A stretch of 64,000 nt of DNA from an uncultured virus (IMG/VR IMGVR_UViG_3300037132_000149) (Duplodnaviria; Heunggongvirae; Uroviricota; Caudoviricetes), in IMG/VR virus record IMGVR_UViG_3300037132_000149, positions 1-64,000 of that record. One strand, written 5' to 3'. The position numbers and the translations under genes are program-made. Under the pieces are notes generated by a model that was given only the letters and a program-made list of their open reading frames with translations, was not told the origin of the DNA and ran no database searches. Below are positions 2,361 through 21,470 of the stretch, piece by piece (position 1 is the first letter of the stretch; each line of letters begins with the position of its first letter).

Positions 2361-2394
2361 TTAGAGCCAGCCTTTGCGTAAAGTACATACTTCC

Positions 2395-2580
2395 GGTCTT
2401 TTGCGTGACGCCAATCTCCTTGGCAAGCTGCATGGAACTGATGCCCTTTCGCGCCGTGACCACGAGGTACATGGCGTAAATCCACTTATGCAGCGGTACA
2501 TGCGACCGTTCGAAGATAGTTGCGGTCCTCACAGTGAAATCAAGTTTGCACTGATTGCAGCGGTAGTAACCGCCCTTGCC
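2395..2580 (-). pseudogene. IS1595-family transposase, N-terminal Zn-ribbon/HTH fragment
   Basis: YRCNQCKLDFTVRTATIFERSHVPLHKW...KGISSMQLAKEIGVTQKT; fused in frame to the duplicated phage gene. Confidence 0.85.
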
Positions 2581-2847
2581 GTCCGCGTCCCGGCTCATTG
2601 TCTTGCGCCAGGTGCGCGCTAGCAGCAACTTGATCACCGGGATCCACACGGCCTCGGTTACTTCCTTGCCCTTGCGAATCACTACTCTCTCGCCGTGAAC
2701 CCATTCCGCACGCTCCTGACTCACTAACTTGTCGGCATGTGCCAGATCCAGGTGGCCGTGCCGGCGACTCTTGCAAGCCTCGCCGCTCGGCGGCTCGGCG
2801 CGTCAATAGCAAACTGTGGAAGTTGTGCAAAAACGTCACTTACCGTC

Positions 2848-2952
2848 TACTCGCACATGCCAACCCGTGACGGGCATACGGGCTTTTGTCGTCGTCGATC
2901 AGGTCGCCGTGGAGTCCTTTCCGCCAGACAGGCCGCAGTATTCGACGGTCAC
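2848..2952 (-). pseudogene. Collapsed PAPS-reductase-family gene relic
   Basis: GTG-coupled VTVEYCGLSGGKDSTAT* (PP-loop SGGKDS), followed in another frame by CPSRVGMCE*. Confidence 0.6.
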
Positions 2953-3395
2953 GCTGCATCTCCGATCAGCCCCGGCGGCACGTTAAAGAAACCGAGTTGG
3001 CCTTTGTATGGCACGGGAGCGGCCAGCGCCACGGGGTTACGCAAAACCAGGCCCACTTCGCCCTGAAACCACGGACTCGCGGATCCCGTCACTCGCCCCA
3101 CAATCTCGACGGACCCAACGATACACCCGCAGAACGGCTCGAGAGCGCGCCAATCCTTCAACAGGCCAACCTCGCTCCGCTGCTGGATTGACTTCGCCTG
3201 CATGTCCTCGGCCGCACAAAAGTCGTCGAAGATCTCCGCCGGCTTCCAAAACTTGCCTACGTGGATCCACACCGGCCCGATGTACTGCTCCACCGCCGCC
3301 GGCGAGCGCCGGTCGCGGTTCTCGATGTCCTTGCCGCCGTACAGAATGAACCACCACCACGGCGCCCGGATGCTCAGAGCCTTCATCGCTTTCAT
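2949..3395 (-). CDS. ASCH domain protein
   Basis: KALSIRAPW...GGKDIENR (GxKxxExR) and C-terminal KGQLGFF. Confidence 0.9.
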   Translation of the reverse strand: MKAMKALSIRAPWWWFILYGGKDIENRDRRSPAAVEQYIGPVWIHVGKFWKPAEIFDDFCAAEDMQAKSIQQRSEVGLLKDWRALEPFCGCIVGSVEIVGRVTGSASPWFQGEVGLVLRNPVALAAPVPYKGQLGFFNVPPGLIGDAA

Positions 3396-3637
3396 CTAAA
3401 CCTCCCCAGCAAAACTTCGAGTTCGGCGGCGATGATTTTGCGCGCGTGTGGGCTCTGTTTCGCGATGGCCTCGTCTGGGATATTCCGCATCGTGGTCAGA
3501 AAGTTATTGCAAGCCATTCTCACTAACTCCTCTGGGCTGCGGTCCTCGGCACCCTCGAGGATTGCGGTGGCAGCATCTAAGCCGCTGATCTCAACCGACA
3601 CCTCCTGGCTCGTCTCGACCCACACTTTAGCTTTCAT
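3392..3637 (-). CDS. Hypothetical protein
   Basis: 81-aa ORF overlapping both neighbours by 4 bp. Confidence 0.65.
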   Translation of the reverse strand: MKAKVWVETSQEVSVEISGLDAATAILEGAEDRSPEELVRMACNNFLTTMRNIPDEAIAKQSPHARKIIAAELEVLLGRFR

Positions 3638-3921
3638 CGCCTCAACCCCTGGTTGCGGTACGCTGCCGCGTCAATCATCAGCTCGGCGCAGGCGCGGCTC
3701 AAGGTGTTCCGGTGCATGTGGAGATCCGCGGCAGCCTTGCACTGGTTGCCGCGGTGTTCGCGCAGGACCTGCGAGATGAACGACCGGCGAAAAGCTGCAA
3801 CCGCAAGCTCTAAGTCGAGGCCGAGGTTGCGCGCTTCCTGGCACGCTGCATCGATCGCGGCGTGGACCTGGCCCAGCGGTGTGACGGCATCCTGTGCGCC
3901 GGTGTCAATTGATATTGTCAT
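3634..3921 (-). CDS. Fis-family HTH_8 DNA-binding protein
   Basis: FISQVLREHRGNQCKAAADLHMHRNTLSR matches the Fis HTH (GNQxxAA..LG.xRNTL). Confidence 0.8.
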   Translation of the reverse strand: MTISIDTGAQDAVTPLGQVHAAIDAACQEARNLGLDLELAVAAFRRSFISQVLREHRGNQCKAAADLHMHRNTLSRACAELMIDAAAYRNQGLRR

Positions 3922-3974
3922 GTCTCTCTGCTCCGCCGGGTTCTGCCTCGTGCCCGTGTTTGAGGCGTAGCCTA

Positions 3975-4649
3975 TCACCGGCCGGGCTCCGCCAGCGACC
4001 GCCGAAACAGTTCCTTGTCAATCTCGGCCGCAATCAGCGCGCCGGCCTTGACGAGGTTGCGAAGCGCGTCGGCCGTCGGTTTCCACATGCCTTTGGCCAA
4101 TGGCCACTCCATCGCGATATTCGGCAGCCCTTTTACCTCGCCGTTAAACTGCAGCACGGCAACGCGCAGATAGGCGAGTGCGGCAGCGGAGAGCTGGCCT
4201 GACCGCCGTGCCTCGTCCGCCCTCATCGTAAAGCCCTCAGCCGTGCACTGCCGAGCGCGCTCGATCGCGATCAAGGCCGACCCTTTGCTGCCGAGCACAG
4301 CCGCATCTCCGTCCTCAGTGAACCGCGTGAGTCGTATCTCGCGCGCGCCGCTGTACGGCACAGACCTCGCGGACCACGGGACATCGCGGGCTTCGCGGCG
4401 ATCTGCGATCGGGTTGTCGGGGCCTGGCGGCCCGGTAGCGTTGCGCTGTCCTACGTCCTCAACTCCTGCGACCGGCCGCCCGCTGGTCAGCAATTCCTTA
4501 AGGTGTTGTTCCGCCGCCTGTTCGCAGGCCCGGCGGCCGAGGCCGCTTTGGTCGAGCAGCGTGAAGGCGCGAACCCATGCGCCGCAAATGCAAAAAACCA
4601 CTGCCAACCCGGTCGCGCGGTCGTCGACAGCCCTGATCTCGTGTTTCAT
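3975..4649 (-). CDS. Conserved phage hypothetical protein
   Basis: C-terminal ERARQ..EG...WP....WKP....RNLVKAGALIAAEID module common in phages; ATGA-coupled to the integrase. Confidence 0.7.
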   Translation of the reverse strand: MKHEIRAVDDRATGLAVVFCICGAWVRAFTLLDQSGLGRRACEQAAEQHLKELLTSGRPVAGVEDVGQRNATGPPGPDNPIADRREARDVPWSARSVPYSGAREIRLTRFTEDGDAAVLGSKGSALIAIERARQCTAEGFTMRADEARRSGQLSAAALAYLRVAVLQFNGEVKGLPNIAMEWPLAKGMWKPTADALRNLVKAGALIAAEIDKELFRRSLAEPGR

Positions 4650-15346: not shown

Positions 15347-15567
15347 AAACGTCCCGACCGGGGTCCGAGGTTCGCGAAGTGATGGATATTCGCCAGGCCG
15401 CGGCGTACCTGCAGCTCTCCTCAGACACCATTTATAAATACGCCCTGCAGGGCAAGATCCCGGCTTTCAAACTCGGCAACCGCTGGCGTTTTACCCGTGG
15501 TCAGCTCAACAGGTGGATGGATCAACTGTCAGATGGAGGCAAAGATGGGCACCAGGACCGGCATTGA
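15343..15567 (+). CDS. HTH_17 excisionase-like DNA-binding protein
   Basis: MDIRQAAAYL..S.DTIY.....GKIPAFKLGNRWRF. Confidence 0.85.
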   Translation: MKTSRPGSEVREVMDIRQAAAYLQLSSDTIYKYALQGKIPAFKLGNRWRFTRGQLNRWMDQLSDGGKDGHQDRH

Positions 15568-16822
15568 ATGGACCGACTCCACATGGTCGCCGATGCGCGC
15601 GCGAGTGAAGCCCGACGCGGTAGCGATTGCCGTAGAAAAGGGCTACACGTCGCTGGTTGCGATTGCCGACAAGATGGCAGGCCGCACCGGGCAGCACTGC
15701 GAGCATGTCTCGCCGGGTTGCGAGCGCTGCTACGCCGAAACCAACAATCACCGCTGCCTGCCGGCCAACGGCACCGGGTTGCCCTACGATCGACGATCGC
15801 GCGATCTGGTCGAGGCCTTCGTCGACGAGAACGCGCTGATGCAGCCGTTCCATTGGCGGCCTGTTCTCCAGAACGACGGGACATACCTGAGAGGCAGCGA
15901 ACAGGCGCGGCGCATGGCCCAGTTGCCGGCGCATCGTCCGCGGCGCATCTTTGTCGAGAACCAGTCGGACCTCTTCGGCGAGTGGGTGACGGACCAGATG
16001 CTCGACCGCGTCTTCGCGGTGATGGCGCTGTGCCAGTGGCATATCTTTCAGGTGCTGACCAAGCGGCCGGCGCGGCTGCAGAGCTATTGTTCCGACGACG
16101 CGGCCCTAGGCCGCATCCTGCGCGCGGCAGACGGGTTAGCCAAAATCTTGAAAGGCCGGGCAGTGATGAAGGCCTGGGAAGTGGACGACGGTATGGGGGG
16201 CCGCCACCTTCCCAACGTCTGGCTGGGCGTGAGCGTTGAGAATCAGGCCGCGGCCGACGAGCGGATCCCGCTGCTACTTAGGACGCCAGCGGCCGTGCGG
16301 TTCATCTCAGCGGAGCCGCTGCTGGGGCCGATTGCGTTACCGCATCTCGTCTCCTTAGCCTGCATGGTCACGAGCGAGCTTCCAATTCCGCCAGCATTAA
16401 GCGTTCCCGCTGGCCAGCACATTGCGTTCTCAAATCCGCACGGAGCTCTTGCCGTCGCCGCCCAGGGTGGCGGTCTGCTCGGCATAAAGCCCGGCGAGTT
16501 TGTCGATCAGGGCACTGGCCTCGATTGGGTGATCTGCGGCGGCGAGAGCGGGCCTGGCGCGCGGGTGATGCACCCGGCTTGGGCGCGTAGCCTGCGCGAC
16601 CAATGCGTGGACCCGGGCGTGCCGTTTTTCTTTAAGCAGTGGGGCGCTTGGCGCCCGGCTAAGGATGGCAGGCTGATCGTCGCAGAGGATGGCCACATCC
16701 GGCCGAAGCACGAGACCCTCACCGACAAAGATTGCCGCATGCGTCGCGAGGCCAAGAAGGCCGCCGGCGCCGAGCTCGACGGCCGCGAGTGGCGGGAGTT
16801 CCCCGAGAGCGTGAGGCTGTGA
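15545..16822 (+). CDS. DUF5131 / Gp37Gp68 family protein
   Basis: TGIEWTD.TW, CEHVSPGCERCYA, SDLF, QVLTKRP, SAEPLLG, DWVICGGESG, PFFFKQWG. Confidence 0.92.
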   Translation: MGTRTGIEWTDSTWSPMRARVKPDAVAIAVEKGYTSLVAIADKMAGRTGQHCEHVSPGCERCYAETNNHRCLPANGTGLPYDRRSRDLVEAFVDENALMQPFHWRPVLQNDGTYLRGSEQARRMAQLPAHRPRRIFVENQSDLFGEWVTDQMLDRVFAVMALCQWHIFQVLTKRPARLQSYCSDDAALGRILRAADGLAKILKGRAVMKAWEVDDGMGGRHLPNVWLGVSVENQAAADERIPLLLRTPAAVRFISAEPLLGPIALPHLVSLACMVTSELPIPPALSVPAGQHIAFSNPHGALAVAAQGGGLLGIKPGEFVDQGTGLDWVICGGESGPGARVMHPAWARSLRDQCVDPGVPFFFKQWGAWRPAKDGRLIVAEDGHIRPKHETLTDKDCRMRREAKKAAGAELDGREWREFPESVRL

Positions 16823-17274
16823 AGCTAAGCCCGGCGCAGCGCAAAGAACTGCGCGGAATGTTCGGCGGCCGCTGCGCCTACTGCGGCGAGAACCTAGCCG
16901 ACAAGTGGCATGCGGATCACGTCGAGCCGATTGAGCGAGAGACAGAGTTTGTTCTCAGCGTCACAGGCTACGGTTACGAAACCACGAGCGCCGGGTATAC
17001 AAAGAGCCGAGCCACGGGCCGTCTCCGCAAACCCCAAAACGAGCGCATAGACAACCTTTTCCCGGCGTGCGTTCGGTGCAACATTCTCAAGTCCAACGCA
17101 GACGTGGAGGGGTTCAGGACTATGCTCACCTACTTTGCCGAGAGCATCCCGCGAATCGCCGGCTACTCCCATGTGCATCATTTGATGCGATTTGGGAAGA
17201 TCACCATCGACCCAACGCCGGTCATTTTCTGGTTTGAGAAATACAGAGCGCAACGGACGGAGGCTCCAGATTGA
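16819..17274 (+). CDS. HNH endonuclease
   Basis: GRCAYCG...DHVEP...NLFPACVRCN..K. Confidence 0.88.
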   Translation: MKLSPAQRKELRGMFGGRCAYCGENLADKWHADHVEPIERETEFVLSVTGYGYETTSAGYTKSRATGRLRKPQNERIDNLFPACVRCNILKSNADVEGFRTMLTYFAESIPRIAGYSHVHHLMRFGKITIDPTPVIFWFEKYRAQRTEAPD

Positions 17275-19556
17275 AAGCGACAATCCTGGTCGGTGACGTG
17301 ATGGCGCGGCTCGGCGAACTGGCCGACGAGTCCGTGCAGTGTGTCGTCACCAGCCCGCCGTATTGGGGCCTGCGCGACTACAAGATCTCGCCGAGCGTGT
17401 GGCACGCTGTGCCGGGTTGCCGGCACGAATGGGCGGGTGTAGTTAGGCACCGAAGCGCTCGCGGCCCACAGGTGCCGCAGACCATTCACGCGCCGGCCGG
17501 CGATGTTCTTGTCGATGCCCAGCGCGACAGCGTGAGCAACTTCTGCCGGCTCTGCGGGGCCTGGCTTGGCAGCCTCGGCCTCGAGCCAACGCCGGAGCTT
17601 TACGTCGAGCACATCGTCCAGGTCTTCCGCGAGATCCGGCGGGTGCTCCGCAAAGACGGCACGCTCTGGATCAACCTAGGGGATAGCTACGCGACGGGCG
17701 CGGGCAGTGTCGGCAACTGCCCCGGCGGCGGCGGTGAGCAGGGAGCGCGCTGGGCCGGCGATGTCGACAGAATCCGCGACGAGAAGAGAGGCTACAGGGG
17801 CGATCGGCTGGCCAACGGCCATGGGACGAGCCCAGAAATACTCCGACGCAAAACTCGGGTTGGATCAAACCGGGCCCAGCGCGGCGACGGGAAAGGCGAG
17901 GGGGTGCCTTACGGTCCCATGACTCAGCCCAACCGCATGCCGATTGTGGGATGTAAGCCCAAGGACATGGTCGGCATCCCGTGGCTGGTCGCCTTCGCGC
18001 TGCGCGCCGACAGCTGGTATCTGCGCCAGGACATCATCTGGTCGAAACCGAACCCGATGCCGGAATCGGTTCAAGGCTCGCATTATTCCCGGCATCGAGT
18101 TACAATCGAAGAGTATGAGAGATTGTCGGGTTTGCGGTACATTGATGAGCGTGCCGGGGATGACTGGGCCGGCAACATGCCCCTCCTGTCGGAGAGAGAA
18201 GTACCTTGCCGTAAAGCGCCGCTATCAGCAAAGTCCAAAGGGGATTGCGACCTCTCAAGCCAGGGAGGAACGAGAAGACGTAAGAGAGAAGCGCCGGCAA
18301 TTCAGTCGGTCGCAGTACGGGAAGATCAACAAAGCGAAATACGAGGCGACTCCCAAAGGCCAGAAGACGCGCAAGAAGGCGCAGACCAAGTACAAAGATA
18401 CGCCGAAGGCGAAGTTAACGAGCGCCGCGCATCATCAGAAAACAAAAGACGATCCAGCGCGGAGATTGCAACGGAGCGCCGCGAACAGCCGTTATGCCCG
18501 GACAGAGAATGGGAAGGCCCGATCCCGTCGTCAACATGCCCAGCGCAAAGGGGCGATCTTATCCACGGACAACCCGGTGACGGCGCAGGATTGGGAGGAG
18601 ATTCTAAAAGCTCACAAATACCGCTGCTACTACTGCAAAAAGAAGGAGAAATTGACGATGGATCATGTGATCCCGCTCAGCAAGAAGGGCCAGCATACGA
18701 AGGAGAACCTGGTTCCAGCTTGCCAGTCATGCAACTCGAAGAAGAGCAACAAATTGATTCTTCTCTGTTAGTCGGGTGCCCAGGTTGCCCAAAGTGCCTT
18801 GAATACCACGGATACCTCTTCCACATGAGCGCGGGACGCTGCACCAAGAGCCATGAATACCTGTTCCTGCTGACCAAGAGCGCCCGGTACTACTACGATG
18901 CCGAGGCGATCAAAGAGCCGGCGGCAACGGACGATATGCGGCGACCGTACACTTCCGAGGGTGCATGGCAGTTAGACGGCCGACCTGTCGAGCAGCGGCA
19001 TGGCGGGGAGATGCGACCCGGATTTGAGCGTCTCGGCCGAGAGGGCGCAAACTCCAGGATGCACCAGGACAGAGACCCATCACACCCCGAAGAGTGCAAG
19101 GTGCGGACCGCCGGCAACAAGACGCATAAGACCGTCGCCGAATACGAGCGCAGCGACTCCGAGGAACACCGCACGGCTGCCGGGCTGCTCAAGATCGCCG
19201 ACACACCCTACCCACTCCGCAACAAGCGTGATGTGTGGACCATCGCGACCCAGCCTTATCCCGAGGCGCACTTCGCCACCTATCCCGAGGGGTTGGTTAC
19301 GCCCTGTGTTTTAGCCGGCAGCCGCGCCGGCGACCTCGTTCTGGACCCATTCTGCGGCTCGGGGACGACCGGCGCGGTGGCCCTCAAACTCGGCCGGGCC
19401 TTTTGCGGCATCGAACTCAGCGAGGGCTACGCCAAGCTGGCCGAGCGGCGCATCGGCGATGTCGCGCCCATGTTTAACCAGATCGAGACGGTAACCCCTG
19501 TAGATTCGCCGCCCCAATCCGTGCTACGCTCTACGGCAGGAGGCGCATCGACATGA
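17271..19556 (+). CDS. Beta-class N4-C/N6-A DNA methyltransferase with a large internal insertion
   Basis: VTSPPY, IIWSKPNPMPESV...RCTKSHEY, HFATYP, DPFCGSGTTG. Confidence 0.9.
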   Translation: MKATILVGDVMARLGELADESVQCVVTSPPYWGLRDYKISPSVWHAVPGCRHEWAGVVRHRSARGPQVPQTIHAPAGDVLVDAQRDSVSNFCRLCGAWLGSLGLEPTPELYVEHIVQVFREIRRVLRKDGTLWINLGDSYATGAGSVGNCPGGGGEQGARWAGDVDRIRDEKRGYRGDRLANGHGTSPEILRRKTRVGSNRAQRGDGKGEGVPYGPMTQPNRMPIVGCKPKDMVGIPWLVAFALRADSWYLRQDIIWSKPNPMPESVQGSHYSRHRVTIEEYERLSGLRYIDERAGDDWAGNMPLLSEREVPCRKAPLSAKSKGDCDLSSQGGTRRRKREAPAIQSVAVREDQQSEIRGDSQRPEDAQEGADQVQRYAEGEVNERRASSENKRRSSAEIATERREQPLCPDREWEGPIPSSTCPAQRGDLIHGQPGDGAGLGGDSKSSQIPLLLLQKEGEIDDGSCDPAQQEGPAYEGEPGSSLPVMQLEEEQQIDSSLLVGCPGCPKCLEYHGYLFHMSAGRCTKSHEYLFLLTKSARYYYDAEAIKEPAATDDMRRPYTSEGAWQLDGRPVEQRHGGEMRPGFERLGREGANSRMHQDRDPSHPEECKVRTAGNKTHKTVAEYERSDSEEHRTAAGLLKIADTPYPLRNKRDVWTIATQPYPEAHFATYPEGLVTPCVLAGSRAGDLVLDPFCGSGTTGAVALKLGRAFCGIELSEGYAKLAERRIGDVAPMFNQIETVTPVDSPPQSVLRSTAGGAST
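18115..18771 (+). CDS. HNH (homing-type) endonuclease nested in the +1 frame of the methyltransferase
   Basis: CRVC/CPSC N-terminus, Lys/Arg-rich helical repeats, then WEEIL..HKYRCYYC....TMDHVIPLSKKG.H...NLVPACQSCNSKK. Confidence 0.85.
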   Translation: MRDCRVCGTLMSVPGMTGPATCPSCRREKYLAVKRRYQQSPKGIATSQAREEREDVREKRRQFSRSQYGKINKAKYEATPKGQKTRKKAQTKYKDTPKAKLTSAAHHQKTKDDPARRLQRSAANSRYARTENGKARSRRQHAQRKGAILSTDNPVTAQDWEEILKAHKYRCYYCKKKEKLTMDHVIPLSKKGQHTKENLVPACQSCNSKKSNKLILLC

Positions 19557-19753
19557 CCACCGCCAACATCGACGTCGACCTGCCTCGGGCTCAGGGCCGG
19601 ATCTTGAGCGTCTGCATCGGCTGTGGATCCCAGGTGGACTTCGAGCAGGCCTACTGCACCGCCTGCCAGCGTCAGATCAACGCCGCAGACCGGCTTGACC
19701 CCGACGCTATGGCCGAGCGTGAGTGGCGTGCGCGCGAACTTCGCGCCGCCTAA
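19553..19753 (+). CDS. Small Zn-ribbon protein
   Basis: CIGC and CTAC; last gene before the convergent late operon. Confidence 0.6.
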   Translation: MTTANIDVDLPRAQGRILSVCIGCGSQVDFEQAYCTACQRQINAADRLDPDAMAEREWRARELRAA

Positions 19754-19766
19754 GCCATTGGCACCC

Positions 19767-21470
19767 TTAGGCCCTTGGAATCTTGAGGCCGCCAATCCGG
19801 GGGCCCGTCAGGGGCAACCCCGCAGCAACCGCCTTTTCCTTCTGCGCAATCCGGTGGGCTTCCTGCAGCGCCCAGCGCGCGATCGAGGTCTCATCGACGC
19901 CCGAGGCGCGCATCTCCTTCACCCTCTCCAGCATCTTGAGCCGCTCGGGCTTCACTGCCTCCACCAGCCAGGTGTTATAGGCATAGGCCACCATGTCGTA
20001 GAGGTCGTCGTCGGCGTCGCCGTGGATCTTCTTCACCGCCTTGCGCTCGTCGATCACCCGGGTCGCGACCGAGTTAAAGGTGCGCGGCATGGCCGTGGTC
20101 AGGACGATCTCCCTGCCGGCCAGGCCGGTGTAGAGTTTCTGGGCGTTGTCGGCAGGGTTCTTGTGGCTCTTGATCAGCGAAACCCCGTGCTTCGCAAACA
20201 CGCCGGCGATGATGTCGAAGTTGGTCTCGCCGGTGCCGTCCTCGTTGTCATTGGCGGGGTCGATCGTGGCAAACAGGATTTTGCGCCGCTCGTCGCCCAT
20301 GCGCGGCTTGATCCAGAACTCGCAGATTTTTTCCGCGAACTCTTTGGAGATCATCTTCTGCTCGCTCAGTTCACCGATCCCGAAGACGCGGCCGTTGTCG
20401 TCGACCGCAAACAACCCCGCCGCGGCGTGCGAGTTCCCGTAGCCGTAGTCGATCGAGATGAAGTGATTCCACCACCACTCGACGCCCACCTGCTGGAAGG
20501 GCATCGACCACTCCGGCCGCAGGAACCCGAAGTAGAGGCTCTCGGCGTTGCACCAGCAGCCATGGAGCAACTGCATCTGGATCTCCGGGGTCTGCGAGAG
20601 CAGGGAGTCGATCTTGTCCTGGCCATAGAGGGGGTTGTCGGTCACCGAGGCCGGAAAGAACGCGACGGTCTTGTGCGTCAACTCAGACGGCGATGGCGGC
20701 CAACTCCAGCTTGTGCCGGAGTAGACGCGGCCTGGCCACACCGAGGAGTGCAGCGGGTCCGCGTCGAGCCTGGTGCCGGGGTAGTGGAGCGGGCAGCGGT
20801 TGCGCAGGAAGACGCTCATCTGCCAGCCGTGCCCGACGCCGCCGGGGTTGGTCGCAAAGCGCGCCCGCACGCGCAACCGGCGGTCGACCGCGGCGAGCCA
20901 GGCGATCATCTGCCTAACCCGAGCCTTGGGGTGCAGACCGCTCTCGTCGATGCCCAGCCAGGAGTATGGGTTACCGCGGTACTTCTTGAGGTCGGCGTCA
21001 CTTGAGAGGTAGCCGAACCGGATACGGGCGCCGCTGCTGCCCAGAATCTTCACCCAGCGGCCGCGCTTGAATTCATACTCGGGAAAGATCCACTGGCCGC
21101 CGCCGGTTCTCAGCCGGTACTTGGCGCCCAGCGGTTCATAGGCCGCCTTCATCCGGTCGCCGATCTGGTCAAACTCGCCCAGTGACTCGCGCAAAAGCAG
21201 ACCCCTGAAACTCGGGATCATGTACTCCTGCATCGCGTCGCCAACCAGAAAATCGCTCTTGCCCCCGCCCGACTGGCCGCCGTAGAGAAGCATCTCCGCC
21301 GGCGAGCAGAGCGCGGCCTGCTGGGCGCCGTTGATCGGCCACCAGACCGGGTCGAGTTCGGCCGTCGGCGGTATCCAGGCAGGGAAATCGTTGGGGATTG
21401 AGAGCTCGCCGGGCGCGAGCGGCGGAGGCAGTTGGAACAGGGCCGGCGGTGTAAAGGATTGCGTGCTCAT
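19767..21470 (-). CDS. terL: Terminase large subunit
   Basis: Q motif, Walker A YGGQSGGGKS, Walker B LGIDE, ATNPGG, nuclease SIDYG and DDLYD. Confidence 0.92.
   Translation of the reverse strand: MSTQSFTPPALFQLPPPLAPGELSIPNDFPAWIPPTAELDPVWWPINGAQQAALCSPAEMLLYGGQSGGGKSDFLVGDAMQEYMIPSFRGLLLRESLGEFDQIGDRMKAAYEPLGAKYRLRTGGGQWIFPEYEFKRGRWVKILGSSGARIRFGYLSSDADLKKYRGNPYSWLGIDESGLHPKARVRQMIAWLAAVDRRLRVRARFATNPGGVGHGWQMSVFLRNRCPLHYPGTRLDADPLHSSVWPGRVYSGTSWSWPPSPSELTHKTVAFFPASVTDNPLYGQDKIDSLLSQTPEIQMQLLHGCWCNAESLYFGFLRPEWSMPFQQVGVEWWWNHFISIDYGYGNSHAAAGLFAVDDNGRVFGIGELSEQKMISKEFAEKICEFWIKPRMGDERRKILFATIDPANDNEDGTGETNFDIIAGVFAKHGVSLIKSHKNPADNAQKLYTGLAGREIVLTTAMPRTFNSVATRVIDERKAVKKIHGDADDDLYDMVAYAYNTWLVEAVKPERLKMLERVKEMRASGVDETSIARWALQEAHRIAQKEKAVAAGLPLTGPRIGGLKIPRA

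Follow-up and report, generated by a model that had tools for sequence, protein, structure and literature searches.

A peat-phage methyltransferase gene carrying an HNH endonuclease gene nested, out of frame, in its open reading frame: a probable dual-coding mobile element

Organization of the locus

The stretch of DNA analysed, referred to as the window, corresponds to the first 64,000 bases of the IMG/VR record IMGVR_UViG_3300037132_000149, a complete virus of 65,401 bp with direct terminal repeats; DNA of the window is present in peat metagenome runs. Within it, a DNA methyltransferase gene harbours an insert that encodes an HNH endonuclease in a different frame, and the methyltransferase frame is open throughout. 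The host gene is an uninterrupted open reading frame (ORF) of 761 aa (17271-19556, + strand), coding for a beta-class N4/N6 DNA methyltransferase (PF01555, E 7e-39), and is assigned to this family by a score of 134.5 bits, against a gathering cut-off of 26.7. The match to PF01555 (N6_N4_Mtase) is split into two stretches, the second of which places residues 517-725 on profile positions 87-220. Motif IV precedes motif I, SPPY being found at residues 28-31 and FCGSGT at residues 694-699, within the sequence DPFCGSGTT near the C terminus. The solved structural relatives of the protein are CcrM, N4-cytosine methyltransferases, M.MboIIA and M.RsrI.

The insert was delimited by alignment with homologues, and its G+C content (0.48-0.56) is lower than that of the flanks (0.62-0.69). 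It measures 765 nt, i.e. 255 host-frame codons (18072-18836, + strand), and is located exactly between MPESV and R(C/P)TK. A preliminary description of this DNA had already noticed that the PNPMPESV and RCTK motifs are separated by a long stretch with no stop; this observation holds, as does the extent proposed for the insert, the start of which is moved from 18073 to 18072. In 76 of 80 methyltransferase loci that were retrieved by means of a relative lacking the insert, exactly two residues ([T/K/R]-D) replace the 255 codons, between MPESV and R[PC]T..HE. The insertion is thus absent from close homologues of the methyltransferase, at a conserved site. Of the four other loci, one does not contain the motif and three do not contain a usable ORF.

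The alignment of homologues with and without the insert, suggested in the preliminary description, comprised 71 methyltransferases, namely the window protein and 70 of the 120 matches listed. In 39 of them the insert is contained within one open protein, while 32 are insert-less. Two motifs located at the ends of the insert, G[ST]xxxRH and C[PA]GC, are found together in all 39 insert-bearing proteins and in only one of the 32 insert-less ones.

Three parts may be distinguished along the insert. A 5' leader (18072-18114, + strand; QGSHYSRHRVTIEE), read in the methyltransferase frame only, precedes the ATG of the HNH gene and is 43 nt long in all ten distinct elements inserted at the PESV site. 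At the opposite end, a 3' tail (18772-18836, + strand; GCPGCPKCLEYHGYLFHMSAG), also read in the methyltransferase frame only, follows the HNH stop and varies between 59 and 65 nt in the same ten elements. The host-frame segments at the two ends are conserved, with consensus GSHYSRHxVTIEEYExLSG... at the start and ...LVGCPGCxKCxxxHGYxFHxSAG at the end; the sequences HYSRHR and CPGCPKC, reported earlier as bracketing the insert of the window, are indeed found there. The middle part (residues 296-493 in host-frame translation, 18156-18749, + strand) is hydrophilic, as had been described, poorly conserved and predicted to be disordered, and stop avoidance is the only constraint evident there. Pairwise identity in the host frame is 0.47-0.59 for the 45 residues at the start of the insert and 0.54-0.59 for the 30 at its end, against 0.11-0.29 in the middle.

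The nested HNH endonuclease

The nested gene starts with an ATG and codes for a protein of 218 aa (18115-18771, + strand; PF01844, E 3e-14), in agreement with the preliminary description, in the +1 frame relative to the host, since (18115-17271) mod 3 = 1. A total of 186 homologues was found. The residues C22, C25, C171, C174, D183, H184, N198, C203, C206 and N207 are invariant within the family, and conservation in the HNH frame is concentrated in an N-terminal ribbon and in the C-terminal HNH domain. These correspond to the two ends of the AlphaFold2 (AF2) model, which has a predicted local distance difference test score (pLDDT) of 93.6 and in which a CxxC...CxxC ribbon at the N terminus is accompanied by eight helices and, at the C terminus, by the beta-beta-alpha domain of the HNH type. 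The core of the latter is formed by strands 180-184 and 199-203 and by helix 204-210; having two CxxC pairs as well as the catalytic His and Asn, it shows the features of the His-Me finger (HNH) fold. The best fold match is 4H9D, a HNH nicking endonuclease from Geobacter, followed by McrA and by the HNH domain of Cas9, all matches being weak (E >= 1.4e-3) and limited to the catalytic domain.

In the related DNA that was collected, every complete HNH gene of the window clade is located inside a methyltransferase ORF and in the same relative frame. More distant relatives are free-standing and located between unrelated phage genes. Scans performed with the whole HNH alignment returned mostly generic HNH domains. 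When a hidden Markov model of the HNH family was used to search the six-frame ORFs of the 80 insert-less loci, a single weak match was detected, at the edge of one locus (L228). Two further loci (L173 and L179) were dropped as not being true relatives. In four loci (L013, L014, L018 and L040) the label 'PESV' turned out to be a false positive of the pattern, which had matched PEKV; their HNH genes are free-standing and were used as controls.

Stop avoidance in the host frame

The significance of the open methyltransferase frame was evaluated by shuffling synonymous codons, in such a way that neither the HNH protein nor its codon usage changed, and counting the stops arising in the other frames. 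For the HNH ORF of the window, the methyltransferase frame acquired stops in every one of 20000 shuffles, about 8 on average, against 0 observed. Codon choice accounts for this result in a direct way: the HNH gene contains 34 codons ending in T, none of which precedes any of the 70 codons starting with AA, AG or GA. The third frame contains 12 stops across the same region.

The same analysis was applied, with 5000 shuffles each, to 11 nested elements, i.e. the window and L002, L164, L004, L005, L162, L165, L166, L167, L168 and L006. No stop was found in the host (-1) frame in any of them, against 3.8-9.1 expected, and about 8.4 in the case of the window (P <= 0.008 each), while in the other (+1) frame stops are as many as expected, or more. 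In 11 free-standing relatives of the HNH gene, 5-17 stops are found in the -1 frame of each, matching expectation. The effect is therefore specific to the host frame, as both the third frame and the free-standing genes behave as expected. Because no shuffle reproduces the open frame of the window, and all 11 elements are devoid of host-frame stops, the methyltransferase frame is open across the insert beyond chance. Homologues with host-frame stops inside the insert, which in the preliminary description would have pointed to a fortuitous open frame, were not encountered among these elements.

Selection on the insert ends and predicted structure of the host protein

Selection was evaluated from the proportions of non-synonymous (pN) and synonymous (pS) differences. 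In the tail, for the 15 pairs formed by six elements with a 65-nt tail, pN is 0.15 and pS 0.78, with a pN/pS of 0.19. No ORF other than the methyltransferase frame covers the tail. Since pS is near saturation and non-synonymous differences are few, the tail peptide, GCPGCxKC...HGYxFHxSAG, is selected as protein in the host frame; the test of selection proposed in the preliminary description thus revealed purifying selection.

For the 14-codon leader, pN/pS is 0.54 and pS is 0.50, the latter being lower than in the tail, and the sequences GGCAT and RTTACAAT are kept at synonymous sites. This conservation suggests an additional role at the nucleotide level, such as expression of the HNH gene. 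The sequence TACAAT of the window (18098-18117) lies 8 nt upstream of the HNH ATG, a purine tract coming next, just before the ATG. At synonymous sites, most of the ten elements retain both TTACAAT and the purine tract, against a G+C-rich background. As a speculation, TTACAAT may be the -10 box of a leaderless HNH transcript. Frameshifting from the methyltransferase into the HNH frame was considered unlikely and discarded, since in L002, L003 and L004 the HNH frame is closed by a stop located 2-5 codons upstream of the ATG.

The structure of the 761-aa protein was predicted by AF2 starting from the 71-row alignment. The methyltransferase core is modelled with confidence, in blocks with pLDDT of 90-98. 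Disorder is predicted within the insert for residues 296-493 (pLDDT 32-42). The start of the insert (residues 270-295; pLDDT 82 and 76) forms two strands and a helix, and its end (residues 494-520; pLDDT 60-84) forms two strands. It is plausible that the two ends form a zinc clasp; prediction of a complex between them (residues 264-300 and 490-526) in the presence of Zn gave a score of 0.19, against a mark of 0.32, which speaks neither for nor against the clasp.

Mobility of the insert

A tract of 809 nt encompassing the insert (18048-18856, + strand) is 100% identical at the DNA level to the corresponding region of L001, a 19-kb viral contig from a different phage. Outside the tract, the 100 nt upstream are 72-84% identical, and downstream the identity falls from 92% to 66% and then to about 30%; the only other similarity between the window and L001 in the region is 73% over 19104-19478, corresponding to the C-terminal part of the gene. 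Inserts identical in amino acid sequence are also found in P0002, P0003 and P0004, the methyltransferases of which differ in sequence and even in architecture. The flanks around identical inserts are 60-77% identical. In one metatranscriptome contig (X20), 146 nt match the insert and 37 nt the window exon, after which the sequence continues into a different host allele.

A tract of identity with diverging flanks fits the footprint expected of homing accompanied by co-conversion, because an identical insert is found within divergent methyltransferase flanks. The homing-type mobility put forward in the preliminary description is borne out to this extent. The HNH protein could instead be a domesticated partner of the methyltransferase, in a restriction-like or addiction-like arrangement, or else serve as a nuclease in packaging or defence. 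The presence of both a nuclease and a methyltransferase at one locus does recall restriction-modification systems, and McrA-type enzymes are among the closest folds. Such a partnership is nevertheless considered exceedingly unlikely, in view of the discordant histories of insert and host gene, of the empty alleles in 76 of the 80 related loci fetched and of the occurrence of distant HNH relatives as free-standing genes amid unrelated phage genes.

Proposed mechanism and alternatives

The explanation preferred here, which is considered probable and held with good confidence, is that the insert is a mobile HNH homing-endonuclease element located in the methyltransferase gene, that its DNA is dual-coding, and that the host protein is produced by reading through it with no splicing. 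The element, 765 nt long, would insert into a conserved loop of the methyltransferase, PNPMPESV-xD-R(C/P)TK(S/A)HEY. The HNH protein would be translated from its own ATG in the +1 frame, and ribosomes translating the methyltransferase would pass straight through the element in frame 0, producing the 761-aa enzyme. About 200 hydrophilic, disordered residues would then loop out of the enzyme between two short conserved ends, which may pair as a clasp, possibly binding zinc. The codons used by the element are such that the HNH gene never generates a stop in the host frame. The long protein would be made and would still methylate DNA, and the HNH enzyme would cleave empty alleles, spreading by repair-mediated homing. 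Dual coding in a tolerated loop had been preferred to an intron or an intein in the preliminary description as well; it is sustained by stop avoidance, by selection on the tail, by the intact core of the AF2 model and by the results on introns and inteins reported below.

Several points weigh against this explanation. Both the 761-aa protein and its unspliced mRNA are predictions from sequence, and contact between the two insert ends is likewise an inference. A two-hexamer scan for sigma-70 promoters over 16600-19800 gave no site, with no -35 element near the HNH gene, and a good Shine-Dalgarno spacing was sought at the HNH start and not found. Contigs of four peat metatranscriptome runs cover 18228-18873 only, none of them extending over the flanking methyltransferase and none skipping the insert; the junction between insert and exon is bridged by at least 31 letters in a single contig (X20, 37 nt). 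These data consist of assembled contigs, possibly derived from DNA, and are uninformative on transcription, strand or level; coverage limited to the insert is compatible with an element common to many phages of the community. Finally, L003 (3640-5229) carries the same element as L164, but its methyltransferase frame is broken on either side of the insert, the insert itself being still open in both frames. Either the host gene is decaying or the contig contains assembly errors; invaded genes can therefore decay, if the former applies.

A decayed host gene such as that of L003 would be in keeping with an insertion that kills a dispensable methyltransferase, the frame being left open on other grounds, such as the avoidance of transcriptional polarity on the genes downstream. 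Orphan methylases of phages are often dispensable, according to section 4.1 of PMC11855218. However, the complete invaded genes (the window, L001, L002/L163, L164, L005, L162 and L165) have intact frames, with catalytic motifs visible in their translations. Moreover, purifying selection on the tail peptide goes beyond mere freedom from stops, and the methyltransferase core is undisturbed in the AF2 model. Inactivation of the host gene is thus judged very unlikely to be the general outcome of the insertion.

The insert could also be a self-splicing intron of an unrecognised, group I-like type carrying a homing endonuclease ORF, with a host frame that is open incidentally or for the benefit of the unspliced precursor. 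Homing endonuclease genes of phages are classically borne by introns, and a T precedes the insert. A search of 17000-20000 against Rfam at E <= 10 gave nothing better than E 3.9 and no match to Intron_gpI, and no match at E <= 0.1 was obtained over five related loci; the group I fold that had been indicated as the main refutation of dual coding was thus not detected in either set. Rfam represents described intron families only, so that undescribed introns are invisible to it, which is a further point to be set against the preferred explanation. On the other hand, the insert terminates in A, C or T in all ten elements and in none of them in G, the final base of group I introns; stop avoidance in the host frame is observed in 11 of 11 elements; and the pN/pS of 0.19 in the tail is unexplained if the insert leaves the mRNA. 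To this may be added, as a weak argument, that no contig joins the sequences on either side of the insert. Overall, an intron is regarded as highly improbable.

Removal at the protein level would require that the insert is translated and then excised by a non-canonical type of protein splicing, or that the disordered loop is cut by proteolysis. The conserved end segments could in principle be a recognition or self-processing module, and a long disordered loop is accessible to proteases. No match to Hint or to any intein family of Pfam was found in the 761-aa ORF, though, and the termini are unlike those of an intein: the insert opens with Q, K, S, H or R and closes with AG or SG rather than HN, and the +1 residue is R instead of C, S or T. 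The lack of intein termini stated in the preliminary description is therefore upheld. In addition, a canonical intein (PF14890) is known from the same methyltransferase family (see below), nine residues upstream of the HNH-element site, and looks quite different. Removal of the insert from the protein is accordingly rated as very improbable.

Comparison with known systems

An arrangement of this kind has been described as the ShiLan domain, a hidden out-of-frame HNH found in the DNA methylases of mycobacteriophages (Arsenault, Gosselin & Gogarten, Genes 2025; PMC11855218); an earlier account of the ShiLan-type element is given in PMC9957025, and gp54/gp55 of phage Applejack are reported in PMC12613952. 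The features described in PMC11855218 are a host frame with no stop, an HNH in another frame, no intron or intein, a disjunct distribution, and an in-frame part predicted to form a loop. In the main text of that paper the word 'selection' does not occur, and no statistical test of the open frame was found there. The element of the window shares with the ShiLan type, as described, a same-strand, out-of-frame HNH within a PF01555 methylase, the conserved insertion site, the stop-free host frame, the absence of intron and intein features, a homing-like, disjunct spread and an in-frame product with a predicted loop. The two differ at the ends: in ShiLan, according to PMC11855218, the start is a GTG at 18 bp from the beginning of the insert, the last 4 bases of which contain the HNH stop, whereas in the window family the ATG is located 43 nt into the insert and a translated tail of 59-65 nt, not part of the ShiLan description, follows the stop.

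Applejack gp54/gp55 (PP978873.1) was used as the published representative of ShiLan-type elements. The insertion points are equivalent, the second PF01555 stretch starting at profile position 87 in the window and 93 in Applejack, and the HNH of Applejack, annotated at offset 355, is in the +1 frame as in the window. Applejack also passes the stop-avoidance test, with 0 stops against 5.6 expected (P 0.001). Homology between the elements is, however, limited to 28 aa of the catalytic HNH motif (pairwise E 1e-4), and domain order is different, the HNH domain occupying residues 118-161 of 208 in Applejack and 171-213 of 218 in the window; the methylases align at the end motifs only (E 3e-6). As judged from these comparisons, the element of the window is of the same design as ShiLan but belongs to a different HNH lineage, from peat phages. 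The window HNH-insert family comes from metagenomes (peat), and among 50,697 isolate-phage records neither a full-length relative of the window HNH nor an insert-bearing version of this methyltransferase was found.

Endonucleases encoded out of frame or antisense are also described inside inteins (bioRxiv 10.1101/2025.01.02.630785 and 10.64898/2026.09.14.751524). As described there, inteins resemble the present element in being selfish elements translated within a host protein at a conserved site, with an endonuclease sometimes located in another frame or strand. They differ in their Hint domain and in their termini (C/S at the start and HN at the end, followed by C/S/T). The insert of the window has no Hint and no intein termini, and has R at +1; it would therefore be expected to stay in the protein.

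Group I introns may also encode HNH homing endonucleases, such as I-HmuI. These too are HNH homing enzymes located in conserved parts of phage genes, with co-conversion of flanks; the window differs in having no detected intron fold or terminal G, and in a host frame that is open and selected. Other ways of accommodating an endonuclease gene inside a functional gene are represented by mobA of phage T4, associated with the ribosomal bypass cassette of gene 60, and by the gene-splitting, free-standing homing endonucleases mobE and that of Aeh1 nrdA. Those systems rely on ribosome hopping or on proteins made in two pieces, while continuous translation is implied for the window because stop avoidance spans the whole 657-nt overlap.

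Related nested elements

Other HNH genes were observed within methyltransferases of the same family. The methyltransferase ORF of L162 (1935-4814, + strand) contains, together with a sense +1 HNH, two antisense HNH ORFs (2200-2808 and 4036-4587, - strand), one of which combines NUMOD3 and HNH; the host frame contains 0 stops across them, whereas 4.1 (P 0.003) and 4.4 (P 0.0008) would be expected. An antisense HNH, 42% identical, occupies the same place in L168 (833-1399, - strand), again with 0 host stops against 3.4 expected (P 0.01). In the passages of the related literature that were consulted, no mention was found of antisense HNH genes within inserts other than inteins.

A different site is used in L006, where a +1 HNH (2989-3651, + strand), 34% identical to that of the window, is located in the methyltransferase ORF 2376-4178 after RFCKSHEYLFLLTKS...YAV; the PESV site is empty, and 0 host stops are found against 8.2 expected. 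A third HNH ORF of L168 (123-683, + strand), with a matching stretch in L170, lies between SPPY and GLEPTP of the methyltransferase. Unlike in the frame-preserving elements, the host frame is interrupted here by stops, and no Rfam intron was detected; this is either a split gene or an unrecognised intron. The canonical intein mentioned above (PF14890, about 318 aa) is contained in P0062 (684 aa), between DIIW and SKPNPMPESV. Selfish elements have a hot spot in this stretch of the methyltransferase.

Within this one family, sense +1 HNH genes are thus found at two sites, antisense ones in L162 and L168, and up to three HNH genes in a single ORF. Invaded methyltransferase genes account for at least 38 further clusters at 90% identity in metagenomes. 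A broader proposal, advanced tentatively and falling a little short of an even balance, is that homing endonuclease genes have a general third lifestyle in addition to introns and inteins, namely frame-preserving overprinting with host-frame adaptor ends, and that it is common in environmental phages. Elements of this kind would police their own codons so that the host protein survives, and would bring along a pair of conserved peptides, one at each end, which would tie off a disordered loop and perhaps form a C3H zinc clasp.

The hidden-HNH design is not confined to a few mycobacteriophages, since an unrelated HNH lineage is found in the equivalent methyltransferase loop. With respect to the main text of PMC11855218, the present data add a statistical demonstration of selection for an open host frame, controlled by the other frame and by free-standing genes, and evidence that selection acts on a part of the insert as protein in the host frame. 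Nested HNH genes are hidden by gene callers, and annotators may mistake such methyltransferases for fusions with low-complexity linkers. The stop-avoidance statistic could serve as a general scan for overprinted mobile genes.

Neighbouring genes

The methyltransferase starts with a TTG codon, which is overlapped by the TGA stop of the preceding ORF (16732-17274, + strand; 180 aa). The latter has a weak HNH match, limited to the first half of the motif (PF01844, E 4.5e-5), and recalls the free-standing HNH genes described in PMC11855218 upstream of methylases in phages Tiff81 and Sashimi. Further upstream, a DUF5131 protein (PF07505) of 441 aa is encoded at 15497-16822 (+ strand); its residues 67-436 match a profile of 243 positions, with roughly 140 extra residues.

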